The notes below the pieces were generated by a model that was given only the letters and a program-made list of their open reading frames with translations, searched no databases and was not told the origin of the DNA. This document shows, piece by piece, positions 1 through 40,642 of a stretch of DNA of 64,000 nt. The position numbers and the translations under genes are program-made. Origin of the DNA: Limisphaerales bacterium (GTDB taxonomy: Bacteria > Verrucomicrobiota > Verrucomicrobiia > Limisphaerales > AAA164-E04); assembly GCA_965204945.1 (NCBI GenBank), contig OZ242022.1, positions 3,629,788 through 3,693,787 on the forward strand, read 5' to 3'. Position 1 is the first letter of the stretch. Each line of letters starts with the position of its first letter.

Positions 1-1204
1 ATTCGTCGGGTTCGACGTCGGTGTCTCCCAAGATAGGAATGTCGATAGTTCGGGTGAGGTAGGTGGTGTAGGCGGGAAAGGTGATTGTGCCGCTGGTTGC
101 CGTGTAGTCTTCGCCGGCAGTGGCTGTGCCGTCTTGCGTGACGTAGTCCACGGAGACGTCTTTGGTGGGAACGCCGTTCACTAATAATTGGATATTGAGA
201 GCGGCGTTGGTTGGGCCTTCATCGCCTTCGAGAACGGAAAGAACAGGAGAATGCGCAAAATGGAAGCTCAGTTCAGAAGGATCGTCCAGTCTCTCCCTAG
301 AATACTGTAAGATACCGATAGTGGCGGCAATCGCTTTGCCAGTGGAGCGATTGGTGACAACGAAACGAAAATATTCTTTGGATTCGGATACGTCGTCGTC
401 TAGGATGGGAACGTAAATGACTTGCGTCCAATTCGTCGTGCCGGCGGGAAAGGTGATTGTGCCGCTGGTTGACGTATAGTCTTCGCCGGCGATTGCCGTG
501 TGGTCTTCCGTAGCGTAGTCGAGGACAAGATCTTTGCTTGGAGGTTCAATTCGCCCATTAATTATAGGCAATTGAACATCGACTCTGGCGGTTGTGTCAG
601 CTAATTCGTAAAGGGAGACACTATACTGGCCCGAATTATAGTATCCCCAAAATCCATGATGATACCAAAACACACGGAGAGTATAAGTCCCCGGCTCCAC
701 ATGAGCTTCCATAATCATAGTTTCAAAGGAGTCGTACTCATTTATACTGTGATTGGAATTAACGATTATTTCCCCAGAGCTATCCACCAAGTAGCCTTTG
801 ATGGGGGCGCGGCTGCCTCTAATCTGCAAAAGCATGGGGCGGTCGACCGTGATTGAATATGAATGATACGTCCCTTCCCTTAATGGTGGTGGGGAATTCC
901 ATCGTGTATAGAAAAGATCGACATACATCTGGCTACTGGCTAGAGATTCCTCGCGAGAAAAGGATCCAGAATGAGTTGCAAGCGTAAATCTCCTTTTCAC
1001 TCCCTCACGAATCCATATTACGGCGTTGGTGGTTTGTGGATAGGAAACAGGATTATCAAGGGAAAAAGGAGACCCAAAAAAGATTGAATCCGTCTCTTCT
1101 TGTTGTGCGCTTTGCACCGCGGACGTTTGTTGCCCCCAAACCAGGGGTATTCCGACGGCCAAAATCAAAACCAATAAAAGGGTCCAGCTAATTGTCTTTT
1201 TCAT
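1..1204 (-). CDS. Secreted Calx-beta repeat surface protein (5' part; runs off window start)
   Basis: Manually translated open frame from ATG at 1204: signal peptide MKKTISWTLLLVLILAVGIPLVWGQ, a beta-rich domain (VEPGTYTLRV), then Calx-beta motifs (LDYATEDHTAIAGEDYTSTSGTITF; VDYVTQDGTATAGEDYTATSGTITF...IPILGDTDVEPDE). Absent from ORF track because no stop lies in the window. Confidence 0.9.
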   Translation of the reverse strand, partial: MKKTISWTLLLVLILAVGIPLVWGQQTSAVQSAQQEETDSIFFGSPFSLDNPVSYPQTTNAVIWIREGVKRRFTLATHSGSFSREESLASSQMYVDLFYTRWNSPPPLREGTYHSYSITVDRPMLLQIRGSRAPIKGYLVDSSGEIIVNSNHSINEYDSFETMIMEAHVEPGTYTLRVFWYHHGFWGYYNSGQYSVSLYELADTTARVDVQLPIINGRIEPPSKDLVLDYATEDHTAIAGEDYTSTSGTITFPAGTTNWTQVIYVPILDDDVSESKEYFRFVVTNRSTGKAIAATIGILQYSRERLDDPSELSFHFAHSPVLSVLEGDEGPTNAALNIQLLVNGVPTKDVSVDYVTQDGTATAGEDYTATSGTITFPAYTTYLTRTIDIPILGDTDVEPDE

Positions 1205-1266
1205 CGTCTGCAATAATGTTCGATACCGTTTAATGTCTTCGTGTCTCAGAAAAGTCAAATTCTAGT

Positions 1267-1677
1267 TTATTTAAGCGGCGTTAGGCGGAGGAATCGTTGG
1301 TTTCTCTCCGCTTTCGGCAAAATTATGGTCAATCGGTCTTGGCCGTCTCCGTTGTCTTCCCGAATTATTTTGACTTCATTCTCCGGCAGCGGCTTCCAAG
1401 TTTCTCCCAAAAGATCGGGCGTTTCCTCGATTCCGAACTCTTCGACAGCGGGAACGGCGAACACGAATCGAACGCCGCCGTCCGGCAGAGGCTCGGCAAA
1501 AATCAATCGGCTCTCCCCTTCTCTGATGCCGATGGATGAGCCGGCCAAATCCGCTTGGTTTGTGCTGGAAGTTGCCGAAGGTTGAAAGCTTTGCGGCTGC
1601 GGCAACGGCCCGCCAGAAACCGGCGGCGCCTCGGCCTTCGCAATTCCATTGCTTGAAGTTGATTCCATAAAAGTCAT
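1267..1677 (-). CDS. Small stand-alone 'RFLRL' domain protein, paralog of 39081-39491
   Basis: 136 aa; C-terminal ~75 aa clearly align with 39081-39491 (SRLIFAE.L..GGVRFVF.VPA...GIEET.DL.GETW.PLPE.EV.I.RE....GQD.LTIILP......RFLRLTP). Confidence 0.8.
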   Translation of the reverse strand: MTFMESTSSNGIAKAEAPPVSGGPLPQPQSFQPSATSSTNQADLAGSSIGIREGESRLIFAEPLPDGGVRFVFAVPAVEEFGIEETPDLLGETWKPLPENEVKIIREDNGDGQDRLTIILPKAERNQRFLRLTPLK

Positions 1678-1931
1678 TGGATTTTCTCGTCCAATCTGTT
1701 CTTGTCAACAAAATTAACATACTTAAATTACCCCAGTCAAATGTTTCAACGAATTTAATTCCTCTTCGAAATGAAGAAATATAGCGTTTTTTTGCCAAGC
1801 GCGGAATCTTTTTCCCCGAATTTTTTATTTTTCTTCCAGATTTCTTAAAAGACAAATTGTTTTGATTTTCGGGTGGAATGCCGAAGGCAATGCGTCTTTC
1901 AGAGAGAGTCTCGTGGCGATGCTCAGAACGA

Positions 1932-1945
1932 GGGGGGGGGGGGGG
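1932..1945 (+). repeat. G14 homopolymer in divergent intergenic region
   Basis: 14 consecutive G, followed by CAAGG and TTGACT at 1951-1956. Confidence 0.95.
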
Positions 1946-2209
1946 CAAGGTTGACTTGAGCAATCCTTGACCGGCTTCTGAACCGCTAAAAACGAGTTCG
2001 TTTTCATAATTTTCCCAGACACGAAGGCTATCTTCTTCGATTCAATTTTGGAATGCAAGATTTTTTTTGATGGTTCTTTTGTCCGTCCGCGCGCGCGGGG
2101 GGAAGAGGATGGTTGCGTTTGGGAGGAGAGGGAGGAACTTTTTCTTGCCGATTGTTTCGATTTTTTTGAAGATGCGCTTTTGGGGAGATTCTTTTTTGTT
2201 GATTGAAAG

Positions 2210-2764
2210 ATGGCGGATTTTGACAAAGTTCCTATTCCTGAAGAGTTTTGGTCGTTTGCGGATGGGCGGCCGTTTCGGGCTTGCGTGGTTTGCGGCGAGG
2301 GTTTGTGGGCGGACGGCGGGCGGTTTTATGTGGTTGAGAAAGTTTACAGCGAGGGCGAGGTTGTTTTTGAGTATGCCGTTTGCTTTTCTTGTCAGCGGCG
2401 GTTGGAGGCGGAGCTTTCGCAACAATCGGTTAAGTTGATTGCGCATTATTTTGACGAGCATGTGGATTGGGCGCAGATTCGCGGGATTGGAGAGTTGTCG
2501 TCTTCTGGCGAGGGCGCTGCTTTGTCTGGGTTGTCTCGTTGTCTTATTACTGGGAAGCGGGCTTTTGAGTGCAAGGAGTATCATATTTTGGCGGTGTGTT
2601 TTGGAGAAAATCTTCTGGCGAGTCCGTTTCTGATTGGCGACGAGGCTGTTGAAAGCATTCAAAAGCTTGTTTCCCGGAAGACTAGGGAGCGGCTGGATGG
2701 TTTTGTGGAGGAGTTCCTCGGCTTGCCTCCGGCGGTGAAGAATCCTTTGCCGTGTTTTGGTTAG
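2210..2764 (+). CDS. Hypothetical Cys-rich (putative Zn-binding) protein
   Basis: 184 aa ORF with CVVC and CFSC pairs plus further Cys; directly upstream of hemC. Confidence 0.75.
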   Translation: MADFDKVPIPEEFWSFADGRPFRACVVCGEGLWADGGRFYVVEKVYSEGEVVFEYAVCFSCQRRLEAELSQQSVKLIAHYFDEHVDWAQIRGIGELSSSGEGAALSGLSRCLITGKRAFECKEYHILAVCFGENLLASPFLIGDEAVESIQKLVSRKTRERLDGFVEEFLGLPPAVKNPLPCFG

Positions 2765-2789
2765 GGCGCGCTGGTTTGTTAGGGGGCGA

Positions 2790-3803
2790 ATGTCTTTGAA
2801 GATTCCGAATCGTCCGTTGCGTCTTGCGACTCGGGGTTCTGCTTTGGCGCTTGCTCAGGCGCATTGGGTTCGGGGTTGTTTGCAAAGTTTGCTGCCGGGT
2901 TTGCGGGTTGAGGTTCGGGTTTTTAAGACGGAGGGAGATTGGTTGCAAGGCAAGGCGCAAAATGAAATTTCCGTTTCTCTTCCCAAAGGCTTGTTCACGA
3001 AAGAGTTGGAGAACACTCTTTTGGAAGGCGAAGCGGATTTGGCCGTTCATAGTCTCAAGGATTTGCCAATTGATCTGCCGGACGGTCTTTGTCTTGCGGC
3101 GGTTGCGCCGCGGGAAGATGCGCGGGATGTGTTGCTTACTAATCGGCCGATTGCGGCGGATGGCAATCCGTTGTGTTCTTTGCCGCCGGGCGCCGCCGTT
3201 GGGACGGGAAGTTCGCGGCGGCGGGCTTTTCTTTTGGCGGCGGGATTGAAGTTGCGAGTGGTGTCTTTACGGGGCAATGTGCCGACGAGAATTCGCAAGC
3301 TGGCGGATTCTTCGGATTTAGACGGCATTCTCCTTGCCGCTGCCGGCTTGGAGCGTTTGGGTTACGTTTTGCGAGAAGATCAAGCCGTTGAAGGCAAGGG
3401 CGTTCCGCCAAACATTTTTGCCGCGCTTTTGCCCGTGAGGCATGTCGTTCCCTGCGCCGCACAAGGCGCCGTTGGATTGGAAGCCCGCTTGGAAGATTCG
3501 GCAACGCAGTCTATTTGTCGGCTTTTCAACGACGTTGATTCTCAAATCTGCGTGGAGGCCGAGCGGAGGTTTTTGCAAGCAATGGGCGGCGGTTGCCAAT
3601 CGCCTTTGGCCGCTTATGGTCAACTTGTAGAATCTTCGCTTCGCCTGATGGTTGCCAAGCCGTTGGGCGGAGGCATCAAAATCCTGGAAGGAACAGCTGG
3701 ACGGAATGAAGGAGAGAGGCTGGCTATGGAACTTGCGGCCAAGATGCAATCCGCTTCGCAGGGAGAAACCACAAAAGAGGCTCGGTTGCCTTCAAAATTG
3801 TGA
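2790..3803 (+). CDS. hemC: Hydroxymethylbilane synthase (porphobilinogen deaminase)
   Basis: Motifs LATRGSALALAQA, KGLFTKELE, AVHSLKD, GTGSSRR, LRGNVPTR, GGGCQSP. Start at ATG 2790 preferred over GTG 2757. Confidence 0.97.
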   Translation: MSLKIPNRPLRLATRGSALALAQAHWVRGCLQSLLPGLRVEVRVFKTEGDWLQGKAQNEISVSLPKGLFTKELENTLLEGEADLAVHSLKDLPIDLPDGLCLAAVAPREDARDVLLTNRPIAADGNPLCSLPPGAAVGTGSSRRRAFLLAAGLKLRVVSLRGNVPTRIRKLADSSDLDGILLAAAGLERLGYVLREDQAVEGKGVPPNIFAALLPVRHVVPCAAQGAVGLEARLEDSATQSICRLFNDVDSQICVEAERRFLQAMGGGCQSPLAAYGQLVESSLRLMVAKPLGGGIKILEGTAGRNEGERLAMELAAKMQSASQGETTKEARLPSKL

Positions 3804-15023: not shown

Positions 15024-15475
15024 GTCCCGGATGAGCGGAGGGTCGCTCTCGGCAAGTTGGCAACACCAAGGTTTGTCATTTTACCCGGGTTTGCGAATTT
15101 TGCCGGGGGAGGAAAGTCCGAACTCCATAGGGCACGATGCCGTGTAACCAAGGCGCCGGCGCTTTGTCGCCGGTGGCTGCGGGCATACACGGGAGGGATT
15201 GCCGCGAGGCATCTCGGCGGAAAGTGCCACAGAAAACAAACCGTCCGGATTTATTCGGATAAGGGTGAAAAGGTGGGGTAAGAGCCCACCGCTCCCGGAG
15301 TAATCCGCGGAGGCACGGCAAACCCCATTGGGAGCAAGATCGAATAGAGGACTTTGGAGTTGCCCGCTCCGTTTGCCGGCTTTGCCGGTGACAGTTCCGG
15401 GTGGATCGCTGAGATGAATGATCCTCTCTGTTCTTAGGAACGCAGACAGAATTCGGCTTACAGCTTGTTCGGGAC
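15024..15475 (+). ncRNA. rnpB: RNase P RNA (bacterial type A-like)
   Basis: GAGGAAAGTCC (15109), ACAGAAAACAAACCG, GGTAAGAGC, GGCAAACCCC, ACAGAATTCGGCTTA; P1 pairing GTCCCG (15024) with CGGGAC (15470-15475). Confidence 0.97.
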
Positions 15476-16993
15476 ACTTTTGCGCCCCCCGGTTTTTTCC
15501 GATCGGGGGGCTTTTGTTTCCGCGCTGGACGCGGCCGGGGGTTGCGTTGTTTGCTTGCCGTTGCCGGGGTGGGAAATTTGCCGAAGGATTTTTTGAAGGA
15601 GCCGGCGAAATTCTCGTTCGGCGTTTTCCTGCTTTTCCAAGGACGCGCTGGCGGTTGTAGAGCGAATGAACCGGGCGCAAATTTTTCTTTGTTCTTGGCT
15701 CCAACGCCGTGTGAATCCTTGTTCGGCGTCTTTTGGTTTGGCGGATTGAGACGTCTTCTCGTCCGTTGGCAGGGGACGCGCGTGCGCCCAGTTGGCGACG
15801 TGTTGGAAGTAGAGCAGGGCGCGGTCGATAAGGATGAAGGGGAATTGAGGGTTGGCGTTAGGGCCGACGGTGATTTTGACGCCGCCGAGCTTCTGTTTTT
15901 TGATGCTGGCGCGGGCGAGGGTTTCTCCCTTTAGCCAAGCGGCGCTGGCTCCTGCGGCGGCGCCTGAGAGGGTGAAAAGGCCGAAGGCAAGTCCGGCGGC
16001 CAGCAAGTCTAGTTTGACGCCCAATCCGCCGCCAAGGATCGCGGCCGTTGAAATGATTTGTTTTTTGGAAAGTCCTAAAACTTGCCAGGTGCGGGAGGCA
16101 AGCAAGTTTTCATGAAGGACGGACTGCGGGGGAACGTCGACGTTGAAGATGTTGTGTTTGAATAGGCGGCGGATTTGCCGATGGCCTTTTTGTTCGATTT
16201 CAAGGAGTGTTTTTCGGTATTTCTCTCGCAAAAGGCCTTGGGCGTTGGCTTCTTCGTTTGGCTGGAAGAGGAGTTTGGATTCTGTGTGCGCAATGGCGTT
16301 TCGGGCGATGTTGCAGAGGATGCCGGCGACTTGGCGGATTCGGTTTGTCCAATCTTCTTCGAAGGCGCTGATGGCGGCGGCTAAGGCTGGTTCCCAATCT
16401 TGGTGGATGCTTTTGAGGCTTTCCAGCAAGGCGATGCGCTCGGCGTAGGTTGCTTGATGAGCGTTGAAGGTTCGGATGGAGTTGAACGATTTGGCGCAAG
16501 CGCTTTTCCATAGGGCAATGTAGGTGTTGTCGGAGTCTTTGGGATTGATTATCGCCATTCTGGGGTTGCCGGTCAGTCTCAGGATTTCTATTTCCATTCG
16601 GTCGGCAATGCTGATGGGGCGGCTTCCGTCGACGACGTAGATAATGCCGCTGCCTTGAGCGAGCGGCCTCAACAATTCAAGGTCGTGCGCCAAACCGGAA
16701 TCGCCGGAGTGGGAGGCCAGAAATTGTTCCGCCAAGTTGGATGACGAGGCTTCGCGCTGGCGAAACCATTGGAGAATTTGCCGCGGATGCTGAAATCCCG
16801 GAGTGTCCACAAATTGAATCACCGTGCGTCCGTCGATGCGGACGGGATATTCTCGGTTGACGGTAGTTTCTCCGGGAAACGGGCTGATGCGGACTGAATC
16901 GTTTTCCGTCAAAGTGGCGACCACCGAAGATTTCCCTTCGTTGGGATGGCCGACGACGGCATAGGCGGGGATTGGGTTACTTGCCGTCATCAT
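15458..16993 (-). CDS. GTPase with DUF3482-like C-terminal domain
   Basis: G1 GHPNEGKSS, G2 PGETT, G3 DTPG; central hydrophobic Gly/Ala-rich segment. Confidence 0.85.
   Translation of the reverse strand: MMTASNPIPAYAVVGHPNEGKSSVVATLTENDSVRISPFPGETTVNREYPVRIDGRTVIQFVDTPGFQHPRQILQWFRQREASSSNLAEQFLASHSGDSGLAHDLELLRPLAQGSGIIYVVDGSRPISIADRMEIEILRLTGNPRMAIINPKDSDNTYIALWKSACAKSFNSIRTFNAHQATYAERIALLESLKSIHQDWEPALAAAISAFEEDWTNRIRQVAGILCNIARNAIAHTESKLLFQPNEEANAQGLLREKYRKTLLEIEQKGHRQIRRLFKHNIFNVDVPPQSVLHENLLASRTWQVLGLSKKQIISTAAILGGGLGVKLDLLAAGLAFGLFTLSGAAAGASAAWLKGETLARASIKKQKLGGVKITVGPNANPQFPFILIDRALLYFQHVANWAHARPLPTDEKTSQSAKPKDAEQGFTRRWSQEQRKICARFIRSTTASASLEKQENAEREFRRLLQKILRQISHPGNGKQTTQPPAASSAETKAPRSEKTGGRKSVPNKL
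15484..15519 (+). terminator. Intrinsic terminator of rnpB
   Basis: GCCCCCCGGT/ATCGGGGGGC 10-bp stem followed by TTTTGTTT. Confidence 0.75.
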
Positions 16994-19628: not shown

Positions 19629-20156
19629 CTTTGCTCGGAGGCCGCCCGGCATCCGCAAGGACTGGGGAGGGGTTTTTGTTTGTTTCCCTCCTTTCCCGAC
19701 CTCCGGGCAATTTCCCAAAATGCGGCACAAACACAAGGAAAGGAAACGCCGCAACTTCCCGCCGCCAACAATCTGCGCAGAAACAGATTCAGGCCAAGCG
19801 AGCAGACGGCGCAAATCGTTGCTTCTCGCAGACAAAAGAACGCGGTAGAGAAATTCTTGCTTGGGTTTCGGTCTTGGCAAAAACGCTTATGTTGTGAGAG
19901 TTGATTTTCGAACGAAGGCGAGCGCCCGTCTAGGTTCTCTCACGTTCAAAAGGCTTGGGACGTCGCTAGAAAAAAGAAAGAGCTCGCAAACCGGCTGGGA
20001 GAGTTGTTTTCAGTTTGTTGCGTTGCTTTGTCCACGATAAGCGGAGGAGATATTGATTGCGTCTTGCCATAAGGATTGGGATGGGCGAAAGTTGGGGCGA
20101 GACGTATCGCAAGCTTGCGTTTAGCTGGTGGGCGGGAAAGAAAAGGAAGAAAGTTT

Positions 20157-23100
20157 ATGAAGAAGAGGGAGAGGATGGGGGTTATAGGGAGGCGTTGGGC
20201 TTGGCGGGGATGGGGTCTGAGATTGTTGGGCGGGCTGACTGTTTGGTTTGGGTTAGGATTGGGGTTGCGGGGGGAGTTGGTAGTATCAGAGCTTTTGTAT
20301 TGGCCGTCGGAAGAGGAAGGAGGAGAGCGCGGAGAGTATATGGAGTTGAGGAATAGGGGGTATGTGGCGGTGGATGTGAGCGGATGGTATTTTGATCGGG
20401 GGATAGAGTTTGTGTTTCCGGCGGGGAGTGTGATCGGGGCGCGGGAGCATTTGGTTGTGGCGAAGGATGCGGATTATTTGGTGGGTCGATATTATGGGAT
20501 AGAGTTGGGGAAAGTGGTTGGGGGGTATTCGGGGAGGTTGTCCAATTCTGGGGAGCGGATTCGGTTGCGGGATACGGTGGGGATGGAGCGGATAGATTTT
20601 GAGTATGGGGTTGGCGGGGATTGGCCTGCTGTTGCGTTTGGAGGGACGGGGCATTCGTTGGAGTTTGTAGGGGATTGGGCGAGGGATATGGGGGATGGGC
20701 GGGCTTGGGCAGGAAGTCGGCATCCGAAAGGGGCGCTAATGGAGAGGCCGAGTTGGTGGACGGCGGAGATGTATGCAGCGCTCAATTCGTTGCGTGGGGT
20801 GGTGATTAACGAGGTGGGTGCTAGTCGTAGTATGGGGATGGATTATGTGGAGTTTTACAATCCGACGGGGGAGGCGATAGATATGAGCGGGGCGTGGTTG
20901 TCGGATGAGGGGAGTGAGTTGGGGAAGCATCGTTTGCCGGCGGGGAGTGTGATTGGGTCTGGGGAGTTTTTCGTGGTGGAAGTTTCTGGGGAGGGGACGG
21001 GGTTTGGGTTAAGTTCCAGTGGGGAGACGATTTATTTGGCGGCGCCGGATGGTTCGTTTGTGGTGGGGGCGTATGGGTTTGGGCCGCAGGAGAGGGATGT
21101 GAGCATAGGGCGGTATCCGGACGGGGGTCGGAATTGGTATCGGAGTGTTGAGGGTTCGCCGGGGGAGGCGAATGGGCGGTTGTATAGGCCGTTGGTTGGG
21201 ATTAGCGAGTTAATGTATCATAGCAGGGAAGGGGCGGGCGGAGAGTATTTGGAGTTGTATGTGTTAGGGGAGGAAGCGGTGGATGTGAGTGGCTGGGAGT
21301 TTCGGGGGGTTCGGTTTGGGTTTGGGGCGGGGGTGGTGTTAGAGCCGGGGCGGTATTATGTGATAGCGGATGAGGAGGCGGGTTTGCGGGCGGGTTATGA
21401 GTTGCCGTTGGGGAGTTTGTTGGGGGAGTATGGGGGTTCGTTGAGCAATGGGGGGGAGCGGATAAGTTTGTTGGATGCATGGGATGTGGTTGTGGATTCG
21501 GTTCGGTATGAGGATGGTCTGCCGTGGCCGTTCGGGGCGGATGGGTTGGGGTCGTCGTTGGAGAGGGGATGTTGGGAGTTGTCTTATGATGAGGCTGGGG
21601 CTTGGACGGATTCGCCGTTGGGGAGGCCGTCGCCGGGACGGGCGAATTCTAAGGAGGATTGTGAAGAGGCGGAGGAGGAAGGGGTGTCAGTTCGGGTGTC
21701 GGAGTTTGTGTATCATCCTGGGTTGCGGGGCGAGGATGATCGGGGGACGGAGTTTATAGAGTTAACGAATTACGGGGGGGAGGCGATGTCCTTAGAGGGC
21801 TGGTCGTTGGTTGAGGAAGTTTTCTATGAGTTTGGAGAGGGGGTAGTTCTAGGTTCTGGGGAGAGCATAGTCGTGGCTTGGTCGCCGGAGCGGTTGGCGC
21901 AAGAGTATTCGTGGCTCGGGGAAGGAGGGGTTGTGGGGGCTTATGAGGGAGATATGGGGAACGGCGGGGGGCGGATATTGTTGGTTCGGCCGGATAAGAG
22001 TTTGGCGGATGGGGTAGTTTATGATGATGATTTTCCTTGGCCTTCGTTGGCGGACGGGGGTTTGGCGGATGGGGAAGGTGGGGATATATCATTACGTCGG
22101 GCATGTTGGGAGGGGATAGGATGGGATGCGTCTAACTGGGTGGCGGAGAGGGAGCCGTCGCCGGGGAGGAGGGAAGGGGAAGAGGGAGCATGCGAGGGGC
22201 CGGCGGTGTTGTGGGAGGCGGGGACGGAGCCTGAGAGAGTGAGGGGCGAAGAGGGGCCGTTGTTGGCGGTCAGGTTTGCGAAGGGCGGGTTGGTGGATTC
22301 GGCAAGGGTGAGGTATTGGGTGGAGGATATAGAGGCGGATGGGGGGGAGGCGGTGATGAGTTTGGGGATGAGCGATTTAGGCGAGGGGAAGTGGAGCGTG
22401 CGGATGCCTTTGTTGCCTGTCAATTCGATAGTTCGCTATCAAGTGGAGTGGGAAGAGCGCGGGGGGCGGCGGGGCGTTTCGCCATCGGAAGAGCGGGATG
22501 CGTTTGGGTGGCATGGGTATTTTGTGGAGCCGCAGGGGCTAAATGGGCGTTTTGATGTTTATCATCTATTTCTTTCTTCGGCCAATTGGCGGCGATTGGA
22601 AGAGAACATCGCCGTGGGGCCGGTGATCGACAATCGGGACAATCCTCGCTGGAATGAAGAAGTGCCGGCGGTTTTTGTGGCCAATGGAATAGTGCACGAC
22701 GTGCAAGCCCGCCACCAAGGAAGCAGATTGCGAAGACATGTAAGCGCAGGCGACATTCCCTTTGAATGCGCATCGAGTCGGAACGACGATCAAGTGCCCT
22801 TCCTCAATTGGCGGATTGACTTTCCCTCTTATCGGAAGCACGACGGCATGGATGTATTGATCCTTAGAAACTCACATGGTTGGGTGCAACACATCTCTTT
22901 CCGTCTGTTTGAGTTGGCGGGAGTGCCGGCGCCGCGCACCGGCTGGGCGAAGTTGCGCATTAACGGCTGCGACTATACTACACAACGGATCCCTAATATA
23001 AGCAGAGGCAGTTACCGGATAGAGAGGCCTGGCCGCGACTTCATCGCCCGCTGGTTTGACGAAGTGGGCGACCTTTTCAAAACGCAGGTCTCTCCTCTTT

Positions 23101-24005
23101 TCCGAAATGCAAACGCTGATCTTCTTACCGGGCCGATCTACAATTACACCAAGCAGGAGCGATATGAACACATCTACAACCGCAAGACTTTGGAGTGGAA
23201 GAACAACCCCTTTGACGGCGTTGGGGACGCGCCCCAAGCGATGATCGAAGCCCTCCACCAAGCCCGAGGCCAAGGCAAGAAGGCACTGCGAGCTTGGCTG
23301 GCCGAACACTTCGACGTCGACCTCACCTTGCGCTATCTCTGCGCCCAAAATTATGTTGCCACTCGCGATGGGAGTATCAATCACAATTATTTTCTCTACA
23401 AAAAGGCCGACGACGGCAAATGGTGCTTGCTGCCTTGGGACTTGGACGCCTCGATGCTAAAGGAAAACGCCATGATGCACCCGTTTAACGGGGGCGACGA
23501 ATCCCGCTTCGGCAATGTCGGCAACTTATGGGGGAATTGGAACCGGATCCGAGACTCTTTCTTTATCGCTTACGAAGCCGAGTATCTAGAAATGCTCTAT
23601 GAATTTAACAATACGATCTACCATCCGGAGGCGTTGTTGCCCGTTGTTCAGGAAGCCGCTATTTCGGGGGGCTTTAGCGAGAGTTGGATAGCCTGGATAA
23701 TGCCTTTCATCTATCAGCGTCACGACTTTCTAAACTGTTACATTGCAGGAACTCAATGCCCGCCTCCCCTGCTTACCCTTCGCATCGAGGAAGGCCAAAT
23801 TCTATTAGAGTGGCCGGCGGGTCGAAGCGATTACATATTAGAAACGGCCGCCGCAATAGACTATGAGGAGGAAGAAGATGGCTATAAAGTCGATTGGATC
23901 GAAGTTCCCACGACCAACAATCGCTACCTCGTTCCTCCCAACCACCTCAGCGCTTTCTTCCGCCTCGCCCCCAACAAAGAATCCACCACTATACCCACTC
24001 CGTAA
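20157..24005 (+). CDS. Secreted protein: 4 lamin-tail domains + CotH kinase + C-terminal FFRL domain
   Basis: LTD starts (VVSELLY..EYMELRN; VVINEV..DYVEFYN; ISELMY..EYLELY; VSEFVY..EFIELTN); CotH motifs HNYFLY, KWCLLPWDLD; tail ...DWIEVP...AFFRLAP. Start codon uncertain (20076, 20157 or 20175). Confidence 0.88.
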   Translation: MKKRERMGVIGRRWAWRGWGLRLLGGLTVWFGLGLGLRGELVVSELLYWPSEEEGGERGEYMELRNRGYVAVDVSGWYFDRGIEFVFPAGSVIGAREHLVVAKDADYLVGRYYGIELGKVVGGYSGRLSNSGERIRLRDTVGMERIDFEYGVGGDWPAVAFGGTGHSLEFVGDWARDMGDGRAWAGSRHPKGALMERPSWWTAEMYAALNSLRGVVINEVGASRSMGMDYVEFYNPTGEAIDMSGAWLSDEGSELGKHRLPAGSVIGSGEFFVVEVSGEGTGFGLSSSGETIYLAAPDGSFVVGAYGFGPQERDVSIGRYPDGGRNWYRSVEGSPGEANGRLYRPLVGISELMYHSREGAGGEYLELYVLGEEAVDVSGWEFRGVRFGFGAGVVLEPGRYYVIADEEAGLRAGYELPLGSLLGEYGGSLSNGGERISLLDAWDVVVDSVRYEDGLPWPFGADGLGSSLERGCWELSYDEAGAWTDSPLGRPSPGRANSKEDCEEAEEEGVSVRVSEFVYHPGLRGEDDRGTEFIELTNYGGEAMSLEGWSLVEEVFYEFGEGVVLGSGESIVVAWSPERLAQEYSWLGEGGVVGAYEGDMGNGGGRILLVRPDKSLADGVVYDDDFPWPSLADGGLADGEGGDISLRRACWEGIGWDASNWVAEREPSPGRREGEEGACEGPAVLWEAGTEPERVRGEEGPLLAVRFAKGGLVDSARVRYWVEDIEADGGEAVMSLGMSDLGEGKWSVRMPLLPVNSIVRYQVEWEERGGRRGVSPSEERDAFGWHGYFVEPQGLNGRFDVYHLFLSSANWRRLEENIAVGPVIDNRDNPRWNEEVPAVFVANGIVHDVQARHQGSRLRRHVSAGDIPFECASSRNDDQVPFLNWRIDFPSYRKHDGMDVLILRNSHGWVQHISFRLFELAGVPAPRTGWAKLRINGCDYTTQRIPNISRGSYRIERPGRDFIARWFDEVGDLFKTQVSPLFRNANADLLTGPIYNYTKQERYEHIYNRKTLEWKNNPFDGVGDAPQAMIEALHQARGQGKKALRAWLAEHFDVDLTLRYLCAQNYVATRDGSINHNYFLYKKADDGKWCLLPWDLDASMLKENAMMHPFNGGDESRFGNVGNLWGNWNRIRDSFFIAYEAEYLEMLYEFNNTIYHPEALLPVVQEAAISGGFSESWIAWIMPFIYQRHDFLNCYIAGTQCPPPLLTLRIEEGQILLEWPAGRSDYILETAAAIDYEEEEDGYKVDWIEVPTTNNRYLVPPNHLSAFFRLAPNKESTTIPTP

Positions 24006-36241: not shown

Positions 36242-38964
36242 TCAGCGCGCCGGCGTGCCAAAGCCCACTAATCCAAGAGACTCTTGGCCTTCTTGGCCGG
36301 GCGCGGTGCTTCCCTCAATTAAACCGCCCGCATTCCAACCCACTAAACCACCTACCCCAATGTTCCCCAAAACTGCCGCATGAACATGGCTGTCCGCTAT
36401 ATGGCCAAAGTTATGACCCACTAAACCCCCAACGCTGTTCGCTCCTGCTACCCGACCCCGAACAGAACAATTGCGAATAAGCCCTTGACTCAACCCGGCC
36501 AATGCACCCACAAAGTTAACCCCTTGAATATGAACGCCTTCTAAGCCTACATTGACCACTTGCCCCCGATTGCCGATTGCGCCGAACAAGCCACTTGGCT
36601 TCTCATAGAAAAGAGCGGCGTCGCTCTGGTCTTGGAACAGGTTGACAATCCCATGGCCGTTGCCCTCCAATATCGCTTGGAAAGGGTTGGCGAAAACCCC
36701 GATGGACTGCCAGCCGTTTCCTTGATTCCAAAAGGGGTCTGCTTCATCGGCTTGATTGTTTTTGTGAGAATCAAAGTGGAGGTTCGTTGTGAGTTCGTAG
36801 CCTTGGGCTTGGGTATTATTGGGAAGCCCCATGTTGGCGATGGCGCTGGGGAAGGCTTGGTTGTAAGCTTTGGCAAACTCTTCTTTGTCGGGTTGGCCGT
36901 CGCCGTTCAAGTCCCAGCGAATCGCATTCAGCTGCGTCAAGTTGCTAACATCAATCAAGCCGTTATCATCTTGGTCGTAATCGGTTGGAGGCAACTGGAC
37001 TTGTTGAACTTCTTGCCGCTCCTCTGATGGTGTTTCGGGTTCTTCCTCTTCGACGACGGTGTGGGAAAGGGTGACGGAGACAATCCCGGCGTTGTTGATG
37101 GCTAGGAAACCCGGGCTGGATGGTATTGAATGCTGGATGCTTGCCTGCTCGTTGGTGTCGGCGGCGTCTGCGCTGGCGGTCACGGTCACGGTTTGATAGT
37201 CCTGCCAATCGGATGGTGTGAACATCAGCTTGCTGGGGTTCACCGTGATTCCGGAATGCGCTGTTTCTAGGTTGACAATTGTATTCTCAAACCCACGAGA
37301 GGAAGTGGGTTTCACTTGGTAAGTGGCGGAGCCGCTCTCGCTCAAGGACACCTGCTTGGTGTTGAACATGAGCGAGGACGGAGTCGATCCGCCGGGCCGC
37401 GAGGGGAACGGGGTGATTATCGGAGTCACACCGCCGCCGCCAATGTTCACATTGACCCGCGGACCCACAGGATCAGGCTCGTCGTCGTCTATAATTTCGA
37501 TGCGCACCGTCTTGGGTTGGAGAACGGAGTTCGTGGGGTTGCTCAAAACCACGCTGAAAGATTCGTCCGGCTCGTCTATGGCGTCTCCAAGGATGGGAAT
37601 AGAGATGGTTTGGGTGAGGTTGGTGGTGTAGGCGAGAAAGGTGAGCGTGCCGCTGGTGGCCGTGTAGTCTTGGCCGGCGGTTGCGGTGCCGTCCTGCGTG
37701 GCATAGTCGATGGACGTGGTTTGGGCGGAGACTAGGCCGAGTTCAACATGAAACACGGCGTTGGTTGTGCCTTCGTCGCCTTCTGATATTCTCAAAATAT
37801 GGGCGTTAAGCGGAACGTTAGAAAAAGAGACGGTTGGCGGCTCTTCGTCGTCTGTGATGGTAACGGTGGCCGTCAACTCAGAAACGCCGTCCAAAAACAC
37901 GGCGTTGGTAGGATTGCTTAAGGTTAACGTAAAGGTCTTGGGCGACTCATGGGTCACGTCGTCTTCCAAAAGAGAGATGGAGATGGCTTGCGCCGCGCGG
38001 ACAACGTTGGTCTCGCTGAAGGTAAGCGTGCCACTGGTCGCCGTGTAGTCCACTCCGGCACGAGCCGTGCCGTCGCTCGTGGCGTAGTCTACCGAGGAGA
38101 CGCCAAAAAAAGCGTTGGTGGCGATCAAATTCCGCTTAATATTGATAACCGCTCTTTCCCCCTCGTCCGCCTCTGCCTCAGACGCCTCTAGGGAAATGAC
38201 GCCATCATGGGTTAGAAGAGTATAGTCAATATAATGAAGACCGACAAGTTTGTCAAATATTCCCGCAGGCAAATAAGAAACCCTCCTTCCGTCGCGCCAA
38301 GTTGCAATAGGGTTGCCAGAAAGAGACAGACTTTGCAGGTTCACCAGATTGTCAAATATCCCCAAAGGCAGGGTAGTGAATTCGTTATCATCAAGATCTA
38401 GCCTTTGCAGGTTCACCAGATTGTCAAATATCCCCAAAGGCAGGGTAGTGAATTCGTTATCATCAAGATCTAGCCTTTGCAGGTTCACCAGATTGTCAAA
38501 TATCCCCTCAGGCAACGGGGCAAGGAGGTAGTTGTCTCTAAAATCCAGCCTTTGCAAGTTTACCAAATCGTCAAATATCCCCGCAGTTAAATTGGTGAAG
38601 AAGTTAACGCCAAGATCCAGCGTTACTAAGTTGGTAAGGCCCGCTAAGTCGCTGACTCGCGGTGACGCGGGATAGATTCTGCCGTCTAATCCACGATTGA
38701 ACTTTCTGCGGAGGTTTAGCGATGTGATGCTGTGAAGTTGCGCTGAGTTGGTGACTTGATTGTACCGCCCAATTCCAAGCTTCGGAGGAGTTCGTCGGCC
38801 ACGGCTACCGTCCTGCCATGCAACACGGATCCAGGGCTGTCAACCTGTCCCCAATTCGCATTGGGGATCGCTTGCGCCGTGACTGTCGATTGCGTCGAAA
38901 ACACCGACAGGCCAACAATAGCCAGCAGAGCGCAGATTCTAGTTTTGCACAATTTAGTTGCCAT
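36242..38964 (-). pseudogene. Secreted LRR + 2 Calx-beta + Ig-like + GLUG-like surface protein, frameshifted near 38775
   Basis: Signal peptide in ORF 38716-38964; -1 frame continues GIGRYNQVTNSAQLHSITSLNL into LRRs (LVNLQRLDLDDNEFTTLPLGIFDN), Calx-beta x2, DYDQDDNGLIDV, and VGALAG/VGGLVG repeats. One extra G in CTTGGAATT restores the frame. Confidence 0.85.
38331..38506. repeat. Perfect 72-bp tandem repeat (2.4 copies) encoding 24-aa LRRs
   Basis: Identical unit starts at 38331, 38403 and 38475. Confidence 0.95.
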
Positions 38965-39080: not shown

Positions 39081-39491
39081 TTAGCGTTGCGGAGTCAAGC
39101 GGAGGAATCGTTGCTTTCCTGCCGCCGCCGGCAAAATTATGGTCAATTGATCTTGTCCGTTGCTGTTGGATTCACGCAGGATTTGGACTTCATCCTCCGG
39201 CAGCGGCCTCCAAGTTTCTCCAATCAAATCGACGGTTTCTTCGATTCCCACCTCTCCCGCGGGAACAACAAACACGAATCGAACGCCGCCGCTCGCCAAA
39301 GACTCGGCAAAGATCAAACGACTCTTCCATTCTCCAAGTCCGGCAGCAGAGGAGGAACTCGCCGTTGGATTGTTGCTAACCGATGCAGATTGGAAGACTG
39401 GCAACGGCCCGCCCGAAACCGGCAGCGTTCTAACGGTCCCAATCAAAACAATCACCAACATCAACCACAACAAACAAGGCGAGTTTTTCAT
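39081..39491 (-). CDS. Small secreted stand-alone 'RFLRL' domain protein
   Basis: Signal peptide MKNSPCLLWLMLVIVLIGTVRT, Ser-rich linker, ~75-aa domain ending KQRFLRLTPQR; paralog of 1267-1677. Confidence 0.85.
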   Translation of the reverse strand: MKNSPCLLWLMLVIVLIGTVRTLPVSGGPLPVFQSASVSNNPTASSSSAAGLGEWKSRLIFAESLASGGVRFVFVVPAGEVGIEETVDLIGETWRPLPEDEVQILRESNSNGQDQLTIILPAAAGKQRFLRLTPQR

Positions 39492-39801
39492 AATCCTATC
39501 CCCTTTCTTTAATCCGCCTCCATTCTGCCACCGCCCCCCAACAAAGCAAGGGAAAAATCAATTGGCTCTTCCATCCTCCAAGTCCGGCGGCAGAGGAGGA
39601 ACTCGCCGATGGATTGCCGCCAACCGATGCAGATTGGAAGAGGGACAACGGCCCGCCCGATACCGGCAGCGTTCTAACGGTCCCAATCAAAACAATCACC
39701 AACATCAACCACAACAAACAAGGCGAGTTTTTCATAATCCTATCCCCTTTCTTTAATCCGCCTCCATTCTGCCGCCGCCCGCCAACAAAGCAAGGGAAAA
39801 A
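39322..39801. repeat. Near-identical direct duplication, 244-bp period
   Basis: 39322-39557 is repeated at 39566-39801. Confidence 0.92.
39566..39735 (-). pseudogene. 5' half copy of the small RFLRL gene
   Basis: MKNSPCLLWL...KSQLIF, then breaks into the upstream sequence of the intact copy. Confidence 0.85.
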
Positions 39802-39844
39802 AGGAAAAAATCGCCTCCCTAAGCAAAAATTCCCCTTCCCAAAC

Positions 39845-40035
39845 CTTTTCTTCAGACGGAGACGCGGCGCCAACCGCAAGAATCGGCGTTTTCCTTCTGC
39901 GCTTGGCAGAATCACAGTCAACGATATTGGCCGTCGCCAAGGGATTCCCACAGTATTTTGACTTCATCATCCGGCAATAGCCGCCAAGCTTCTCCAAGCA
40001 AATCGGCGGTTTCCTCGATTCCGAACTCCTCAGCC
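39845..40035 (-). pseudogene. 3' half, frameshifted copy of the small RFLRL gene
   Basis: EEFGIEETADLLGEAWRLLPDDEVKIL...GDGQYR, frameshift, LTVILPSAEGKRRFLRLAP. Confidence 0.8.
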
Positions 40036-40642
40036 ATAGATGTTCTTTTGTTACTTTGTTTAATTCCTTTATTTCAGGCAACGGGAGTCCCATTGAGAGA
40101 CTTTCATCCTCTCCTCAATCCCTTTTGGGAAAACTGCTCCCGCGTCCAGGCCGATTGGCATTTCCAAGCGGAGCAAATCACGCGAGTTCCTGCCTGTTCG
40201 CCGAAGCCAACAGGAAAGGCAATTGCGACTCTCCCGAAACTCTGTCAAAAACTGTGATATTTAGCAAGGAGACCCATATGACGAATCCCTCCTGCGTTTA
40301 TTGCTTCAAGAGCGAGAAAATCAAAAAACAACCAGGAGCATAACGTTTGTTTTGAGGATTCCACGATTTTGTGTCTTTTTTGGCGGAATGGTAGAATTCA
40401 GGTGATCGTGTTTGTTGGCGGATTAAAGAAGAACGTCCTCGCGGATGTCTGCCAACTCCTTTTTTGATTTAGCGCAAAAGGGTTTTTGGTAAAACCGAAG
40501 CAGGCAAAAGACCGCGCGTGGAAAAATCTGCTTGCGGAGTCTGGCTGTTTTTGGTGGCTTTTGGATGGGCATCATTCTCGTTGAAATCGAAGGCGAGGGA
40601 TTGCATTCTGGCTGGAATCAAAGGGAACGAAAAGGCGGCGGC

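Follow-up and report, generated by a model that had tools for sequence, protein, structure and literature searches.

A short open reading frame upstream of a Calx-beta gene in a Limisphaerales bacterium is probably what remains of the 3' end of a deleted giant gene for a surface protein

The orphan 3' modules of polymorphic toxins (cdiA-CT/cdiI and the rhs orphans) are truncated 3' ends of giant secreted-protein genes that are kept with a downstream gene, occur as many scattered copies, and share a conserved junction that allows recombination. Silent cassettes, such as pilS of Neisseria and vls of Borrelia, are also numerous partial copies, in which conserved flanks surround a variable segment and are homogenised within the genome. 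The locus presented in this study resembles both. It lies at the left end of a 64,000-nucleotide stretch of DNA from a Limisphaerales bacterium, referred to here as the window (C1:3629788-3693787 of a 4.3-Mb genome in 2 contigs), and consists of a 136-amino-acid open reading frame (ORF) with an ATG start, p1 (window 1267-1677, minus strand), followed on the same strand by a gene for a secreted Calx-beta protein. An 82-residue unit, the RFLRL domain, forms the C-terminus of p1 (1270-1515, minus strand; matched over positions 1-81 of a hidden Markov model, HMM). An earlier note on this stretch, made from the letters alone, had read p1 as a putative sorting or anchoring domain encoded in trans as a gene of its own, which would act as an adaptor or chaperone for the adjacent adhesin. 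Paralog alignment and comparison of loci instead suggest, with a probability that we put at roughly 0.8, that p1 is the leftover 3' end, devoid of a signal peptide, of a deleted giant surface-protein gene and not a dedicated stand-alone adaptor gene.

Unlike the cdiA-CT/cdiI and rhs modules, the cassettes described here contain neither a toxin domain nor a small immunity gene; what is kept is a conserved immunoglobulin (Ig)-like end domain, and variability resides in the N-terminus of the large secreted protein encoded downstream. Unlike those of pilS and vls, the downstream genes are complete, with a start codon and a signal peptide, and there is no single expression locus. In both comparisons, exchange between the cassettes described here is putative. 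The C-terminal domain of type IX secretion (Por_Secre_tail, TIGR04183) is similar in that a β-sandwich of approximately 80 residues follows a linker and terminates large secreted proteins, but the host in the present case belongs to the Verrucomicrobiota (Limisphaerales) and the end motif is QRFLRLTP. TIGR04183/Por_Secre_tail did not match p1 or the second 136-residue copy in the window, p2, in NCBIfam (E ≤ 1), nor was a match found anywhere in the genome; PorP/SprF also had no match in the genome, although the control genomes gave none either. In contrast to PEP-CTERM/exosortase signals, the RFLRL unit is folded and lacks both a transmembrane helix and a PEP motif; p1 ends in LTIILPKAERNQRFLRLTPLK, which contains no hydrophobic helix, and NCBIfam gave no match to a PEP-CTERM signal in p1.

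In its native form, the cassette consists of two genes, A and B. Gene A encodes a secreted protein of 1100-2800 amino acids with a signal peptide, many blade repeats of ~45 residues, cadherin-like β-sandwich domains (PF12733, E = 8e-36), a Pro/Ser/Gln linker of ~40 residues, and the 82-residue RFLRL domain, which finishes with QRFLRLTP. The blade repeat of the giant proteins (...P.GLWSDG.TMWV.D....KLYAY...; e.g., C1:1873980-1879100 and its paralogs) has no Pfam match, and only the cadherin-like domains of these proteins are recognised. Gene B begins ~10-62 bp after gene A; its secreted product combines a hypervariable N-terminal half, containing Calx-beta domains with or without leucine-rich repeats (LRR), with a conserved C-terminal half that has GLUG repeats. 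When the genome was searched with an HMM of the RFLRL domain built from its own copies, the ~82-residue unit was found to end seven large frames (425, 1143, 1707, 1828, 1834, 1860, and 2115 amino acids); five short frames and no fewer than five broken fragments contain it as well. About half of the copies are stubs. The 425-residue frame (C1:2319902-2321176; locus L022 in the genome G009) is a 5'-truncated gene A of equal length in two species that is open but has no signal peptide, and it may represent a conserved shorter form or an old truncation.

The association with Calx-beta genes claimed in the earlier note was confirmed. An RFLRL copy lies within 1.7 kb upstream on the same strand at 10 of the 17 loci that contain the partner's conserved C-terminal half, compared with ~0.1 expected by chance in the whole genome. 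In three genomes, the core-clade RFLRL copies, whether long or short, are followed by a same-strand gene with the GLUG-containing C-terminal half, and a diverged subclade of the domain is without such a neighbour. The partner proteins end in ...GLVGFGTPAR and, on a point that the note had proposed to check, have no RFLRL tail of their own. The two-gene module that it had supposed therefore exists, together with an undescribed end domain; its native first member, however, is a giant protein that carries the RFLRL domain in cis, and the pairing with Calx-beta genes is inherited from this A-B operon.

The RFLRL profile matched only 57 of 1.84 billion representative proteins, nearly all of them with the domain at the extreme C-terminus. 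Among 30 relatives, 18-20 copies each are present in three genomes (three species of the same genus), one weak match each was obtained in three further genomes of that genus, and none was obtained in the remaining relatives. AlphaFold2 predicts a six-stranded Ig-like sandwich from the 12-copy alignment (predicted local distance difference test score, 88.6). A Foldseek comparison with the PDB returned generic Ig-like folds only (best E = 9e-3), so that no specific sorting-domain fold is assignable. Neither p1 nor p2 was matched by Pfam or NCBIfam (threshold for the latter, E ≤ 1), and the literature search retrieved no account of it. The RFLRL unit is a genuine domain, hitherto undescribed, and surface retention, contact with the B protein, and service as an export tag are plausible candidate roles for it in the intact A proteins.

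The domain was also said in the earlier note to resemble C-terminal tails of secreted proteins, and this likeness holds. The motif [FYW]xR[LIVM] ends ~50 of the 2250 long ORFs in the genome, against 6 in a random internal control. The tails of this wider class comprise ~70 residues with a conserved Trp and a terminal FFRV/FYRL strand (e.g., C1:1461122-1462384 and C1:2132-4654), and the LTD-CotH protein in the window (20076-24005) bears a tail of the W...FFRV class. A profile-profile comparison of the RFLRL domain with the class in hhalign gave a probability of 72% (E = 3e-5), which suggests a distant similarity. Pfam and NCBIfam have no model for the FFRV-class tails among the examples tested.

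Ahead of its RFLRL domain, p1 retains pieces that belong to a much larger gene, a feature beyond what the earlier note had described. Positions 1516-1668 (minus strand) encode the Pro/Ser/Gln-rich linker KAEAPPVSGGPLPQPQSFQPS and STSSNGI, the vestige of a cadherin-like domain end. In the alignment of 12 copies, p1 reads SNGIAKAEAPPVSGGPLP where the long paralogs read TAENGISRSTYLIEVTKAEAPPVSGGPLP, and the stretch kept in p1, STSSNGIAKAEAPPVSGGPLP, is the linker plus the cadherin-like vestige with a small deletion. The short copies at genome 2250869 and 1145112 similarly run in frame into the end of a cadherin-like domain (EGYNIIAVGVTAENGISRSTYLIEVTKAEAPP).

The same relation is seen at the level of the locus. 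At the intact locus (genome 1871578-1879100), the gene for the 1707-residue protein (genome 1873980-1879100) is followed by that for an 806-residue partner. An upstream block of the p1 locus (window 1981-2066, minus strand) is 88% identical to the 5' region of the 1707-residue gene, the RFLRL domain is 79% identical, and a downstream block of 1.67 kb, which covers the 3' half of the partner gene and ~465 bp beyond it, is 93.8% identical; the B N-terminus between the blocks is unalignable. The distance from the upstream block to the RFLRL domain is 341 bp in the p1 locus, versus ~5 kb in the intact locus. Deletions of several kilobases are not explicable as assembly errors. A G14 homopolymer (C14 on the gene strand; window 1932-1945) is located ~250 bp upstream of p1. 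G/C runs of at least 9 nucleotides number 74 in the genome, and two cassettes (genome 1879033 and 1145631) are preceded by C12 tracts whose flanks are similar; it is possible that such tracts upstream of cassettes are slippage switches. The C14 tract of p1 was rejected as a positional homolog of the C12 tract of the intact locus, because the alignment puts the two at different positions. A promoter and terminator scan of window positions 1-2800 gave 3 promoter-like sites versus 2.5 expected.

The hemC flank of p1 is syntenic in G009 (89% identity) and in G005 (82% identity), and both genomes have RFLRL copies at the matching place. In G009, the counterpart of p1 is a frame of 100 amino acids with a GTG start that has lost the linker and ends in QRLLRPTPPQP, where the invariant Phe and Leu are replaced. 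Two RFLRL copies are present at the site in G005: in one, two indels scramble ~20 codons, and the other terminates a miniature gene A, now divided among three frames, i.e., a signal-peptide piece, a piece with blades and cadherin-like domains, and the RFLRL domain. A tree of 43 RFLRL copies from the three genomes has short copies interspersed among long ones. Where alignment columns do not vary among the long copies (leave-one-out), replacements amount to 7.2% in the short copies versus 2.4% in the long ones (Mann-Whitney p = 0.006), and the short copies thereby show what appears to be relaxed constraint.

Both partner genes in the window are frameshifted in the assembly, which the earlier note had not recorded. 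The partner gene of p1 starts with an ATG at position 1204, 62 bp from p1, and its 5' part (1-1204, minus strand) encodes the signal peptide MKKTISWTLLLVLILAVGIPLVWGQQ, a variable N-terminal region, and two Calx-beta domains (PF03160, E = 7e-25; 87.8 and 113.1 bits versus a curated cut-off of 27) before it exits the window at the left. This agrees with the arrangement given in the note for p1, and the Calx-beta strings quoted there are present in the translations as written. A +1 T insertion lies ~115 bp to the left of the window, just after ...GGVTPIITPFP, where the gene reads CCGTTTCCCC and three paralogs read CCGTTCCCC; as a result, the partner is read in two frames (481 and 392 amino acids), versus 806 amino acids in the intact paralog. 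The partner gene of p2 has a 1-nt deletion ~190 nt past its ATG, relative to a paralog of 84% identity at genome 2.319 Mb. The sites are T3/C4 and a non-repeat, and phase-variable frameshifting was accordingly rejected.

The native position of the domain in cis, the vestiges of the linker and the preceding domain, the matched flanks, the damaged syntenic copies, the partner-type signal peptide of p2 (described below), the intermixed tree, the apparently relaxed short copies, the frameshifted partner genes, and the fact that p1 and p2 are singletons at 90% identity in a search among 15 billion proteins together argue for p1 being a remnant. On the other hand, several observations weigh against this. 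p1 is an intact, ATG-initiated ORF, and the stub persists at its site in three species. The stubs at genome 1.145 and 1.845 Mb lie ahead of intact partner genes. The small ORF of the p2 type is intact in four of five known copies and has a plausible ribosome-binding site and an export signal. The single-base frameshifts in the partner genes could in part be errors of the 2-contig assembly. Finally, when p1 is compared with its syntenic counterparts, the ratio of nonsynonymous to synonymous substitution rates (dN/dS) is 0.38-0.42, which is close to that of hemC (0.24-0.38). The value of ~0.4 could reflect selection on p1 or gene conversion from copies that are under selection. Since the 94% tract beside p1 and the head/tail mosaics of the p2-type copies give clear signs that cassettes convert one another, we regard dN/dS as uninformative for function.

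The second copy, p2 (39081-39491, minus strand), is 61% identical to p1 over the shared part and lies upstream of a partner gene (36242-38964, minus strand) for a signal peptide, LRR, two Calx-beta domains, and GLUG repeats, so that the pairing does recur at 39 kb as the earlier note had stated. The note had also distinguished the two copies by their N-termini, correctly: p1 has no signal peptide, and p2 has the hydrophobic N-terminus MKNSPCLLWLMLVIVLIGTVRT. Sequence comparison presents p2 as a chimera of a partner-type signal peptide (39426-39491, minus strand), a linker, and the RFLRL domain, with the joint between ...T and LPVSGGPLP. For the signal peptide, a homologous sequence in G009 (ILFPFFGGWRQNRDGLKNGNRIMKNSPFLLLAPLVVVLILTGGTPTAFGQ) spans an intergenic spacer and the first part of a partner-type gene. 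At locus L027 of G009, a frame does not stop after the RFLRL domain but crosses the spacer and enters the next gene (...QFLRLT...ILFPFFGGWRQNRDGLKNGNRIMKNSPFLLLAPLVVVLILTGGTPTAFGQGQ), which begins with a partner-type signal peptide. p2 and the copy at genome 1.845 Mb share the spacer and MKNSPCLLWLMLV(I/V)VLIGT and then switch to ...PVSGGPLP, which is gene A linker. From these homologies, the signal peptide of p2 appears to be borrowed from a partner-type gene via recombination at the linker.

Upstream of p2, positions 39496-40037 (minus strand) contain a tandem partial duplicate of its head (spacer, signal peptide, and linker start) and an older, broken RFLRL fragment that begins at AEEFGIEE. 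A dispersed repeat of ~150-270 nt with 37 copies in the genome follows at 40100-40400 (minus strand); most of its copies sit tens of base pairs upstream of genes whose products begin with ...KKTPWHLRFAP.... The p2-type head occurs at only 3 places in the genome, and two metagenome contigs have the same layout as p2: a broken domain fragment starting at AEEFGIEE, the spacer, a small ORF, and the partner. The heads of the p2-type copies are nearly identical (synonymous divergence, dS, of 0-0.36), whereas the domains behind them have dS values of 0.66-1.95, and this contrast suggests that recombination at the linker has carried a young head to tails that are old and differ from one another. The metagenome protein P0001 is also chimeric but has a different breakpoint, with a partner signal peptide and LRR start joined to a cadherin-like end, the linker, and the RFLRL domain. 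In G005, p2 corresponds by synteny to the end of a large gene with blade repeats, which is broken by frameshifts.

The two halves of the partner genes differ in their history. The C-terminal halves (e.g., genome 3628507-3629682 and window 36242-37400) are 79-100% identical in most copies of the genome and 59-72% identical to those of the sister species, whereas the N-terminal halves are barely alignable, with 36-45% identity at the protein level or no DNA match. That the C-terminal halves are closer within the genome than to the sister species indicates that this half is probably under concerted evolution by gene conversion, with the N-terminal half diversifying. Between the Ig-like region and the GLUG repeats, all partners conserve an Asp/Gly-rich segment resembling EF-hands or dockerins (e.g., DYDQDDNGLIDVSNLTQLNAIRWDLNGDGQPD in window 36242-38566), to which Pfam EF-hand models match weakly.

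From the architecture, copy number, adjacency, truncations, chimeric junctions, and mosaic identities observed, we infer a route of duplication, conversion, and deletion in which the stubs would be by-products. The cassettes would duplicate, recombine, and convert one another, as the mosaic identity patterns suggest. Internal deletions between repeated or conserved segments and illegitimate joins would repeatedly remove the body of gene A, and what would remain ahead of gene B is the upstream region of gene A, the linker, and the C-terminal domain. The p1 cassette would then be a worn-out copy, in which ~5 kb of gene A has gone, the stub has no export signal, and gene B is frameshifted. The copy at 39 kb would be a different by-product, in which the conserved linker is the joint between a C-terminal domain and a young head composed of the dispersed repeat, a broken domain fragment, the spacer, and a partner-type signal peptide.

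Another explanation, which we regard as unlikely, gives the short copies two uses at once. The RFLRL-coding DNA of the stubs and the conserved GLUG half would be recombination arms that shuffle the hypervariable N-terminal halves of the partners among ~10 cassettes per genome, and young, exported mini-proteins of the p2 type would be expressed and act as free competitors or adaptors for any molecule to which the domain binds on the giant proteins, the whole forming a surface-variation system in a free-living Verrucomicrobium. Each of the two uses can also be proposed singly, and each is then similarly unlikely.

The first is that the stub DNA is kept for use in cis, either as a homology arm for swapping N-terminal variants of gene B by conversion or as a promoter or leader driving gene B. 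The hypervariable half of gene B would be flanked by domain-coding DNA on its upstream side and by the GLUG half on its downstream side, as in orphan or silent cassettes, and the cassettes do have the conserved flanks, homogenised within the genome, around a variable segment that characterise orphan cassettes. Such a use fits the mosaic identity of the p1 locus (88% upstream, 79% in the domain, an unalignable B N-terminus, and 94% in the B C-terminus plus ~465 bp), the higher identity of the B C-terminal halves in most copies within the genome than to the sister species (79-100% versus 59-72%), the retention of the upstream block and the homopolymer tracts in stubs, and the presence in the p2 head of a dispersed repeat that is also found upstream of 30-odd other genes. 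However, a donor-to-recipient conversion tract across a variable region is only hypothetical; the B genes that follow stubs differ from classical silent cassettes in possessing a start codon and a signal peptide each; the presence of more than one long A gene per genome leaves no single expression site; and the synonymous divergence in the stub is not consistently low.

The second, to which we give an equally low probability, is that the free RFLRL domain, at least in its exported p2 type, is a functional small protein that serves the adjacent Calx-beta adhesin in trans as an adaptor, chaperone, or anchor. The ORFs are intact in p1, in p2, in the copy at genome 1.845 Mb, and at two metagenome loci of similar layout; p2 has, besides its export signal, a purine-rich stretch before the ATG; the adjacency to partner genes is tight and recurrent; and dN/dS is ~0.2-0.5. 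Yet the supposed client of p1 is secreted while p1 itself is devoid of an export signal, and the clients of p1 and p2 are both frameshifted. The domain is natively in cis on giant proteins, the syntenic orthologs are damaged, and the short copies form no clade and appear to be under relaxed constraint. The head of p2 is young and mosaic, and no homolog at 90% identity is found elsewhere. The sorting domain encoded in trans thus finds no support at these loci: the short copies appear to be detached 3' fragments of larger genes, the outcome that the earlier note had itself named as speaking against its proposal. A single expression locus like that of pilE/pilS was also considered and rejected, since more than one long copy is present in each of the sister genomes.

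In the remainder of the window, the Rfam scan recognised only a bacterial RNase P RNA of class A (15027-15476; RF00010, 227.7 bits).

For annotation, p1 being a probable gene remnant means that small ORFs consisting only of a C-terminal domain beside adhesin genes are not to be named adaptors before their paralogs and synteny have been checked. What is both undescribed and real is the cis domain, the two-gene family, and the recombination of this family. Of interest are the Ig-like end domain on giant blade-repeat and cadherin-like proteins, with its distant tie to the FFRV tails, and the tight linkage of this domain to Calx-beta/GLUG partners whose N-terminal halves are hypervariable and whose C-terminal halves are homogenised. 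Truncation and chimera formation are unusually frequent in the family. Together, these features point to cell surfaces that turn over rapidly in uncultivated Limisphaerales; the family is more worthy of study than the p1 ORF.

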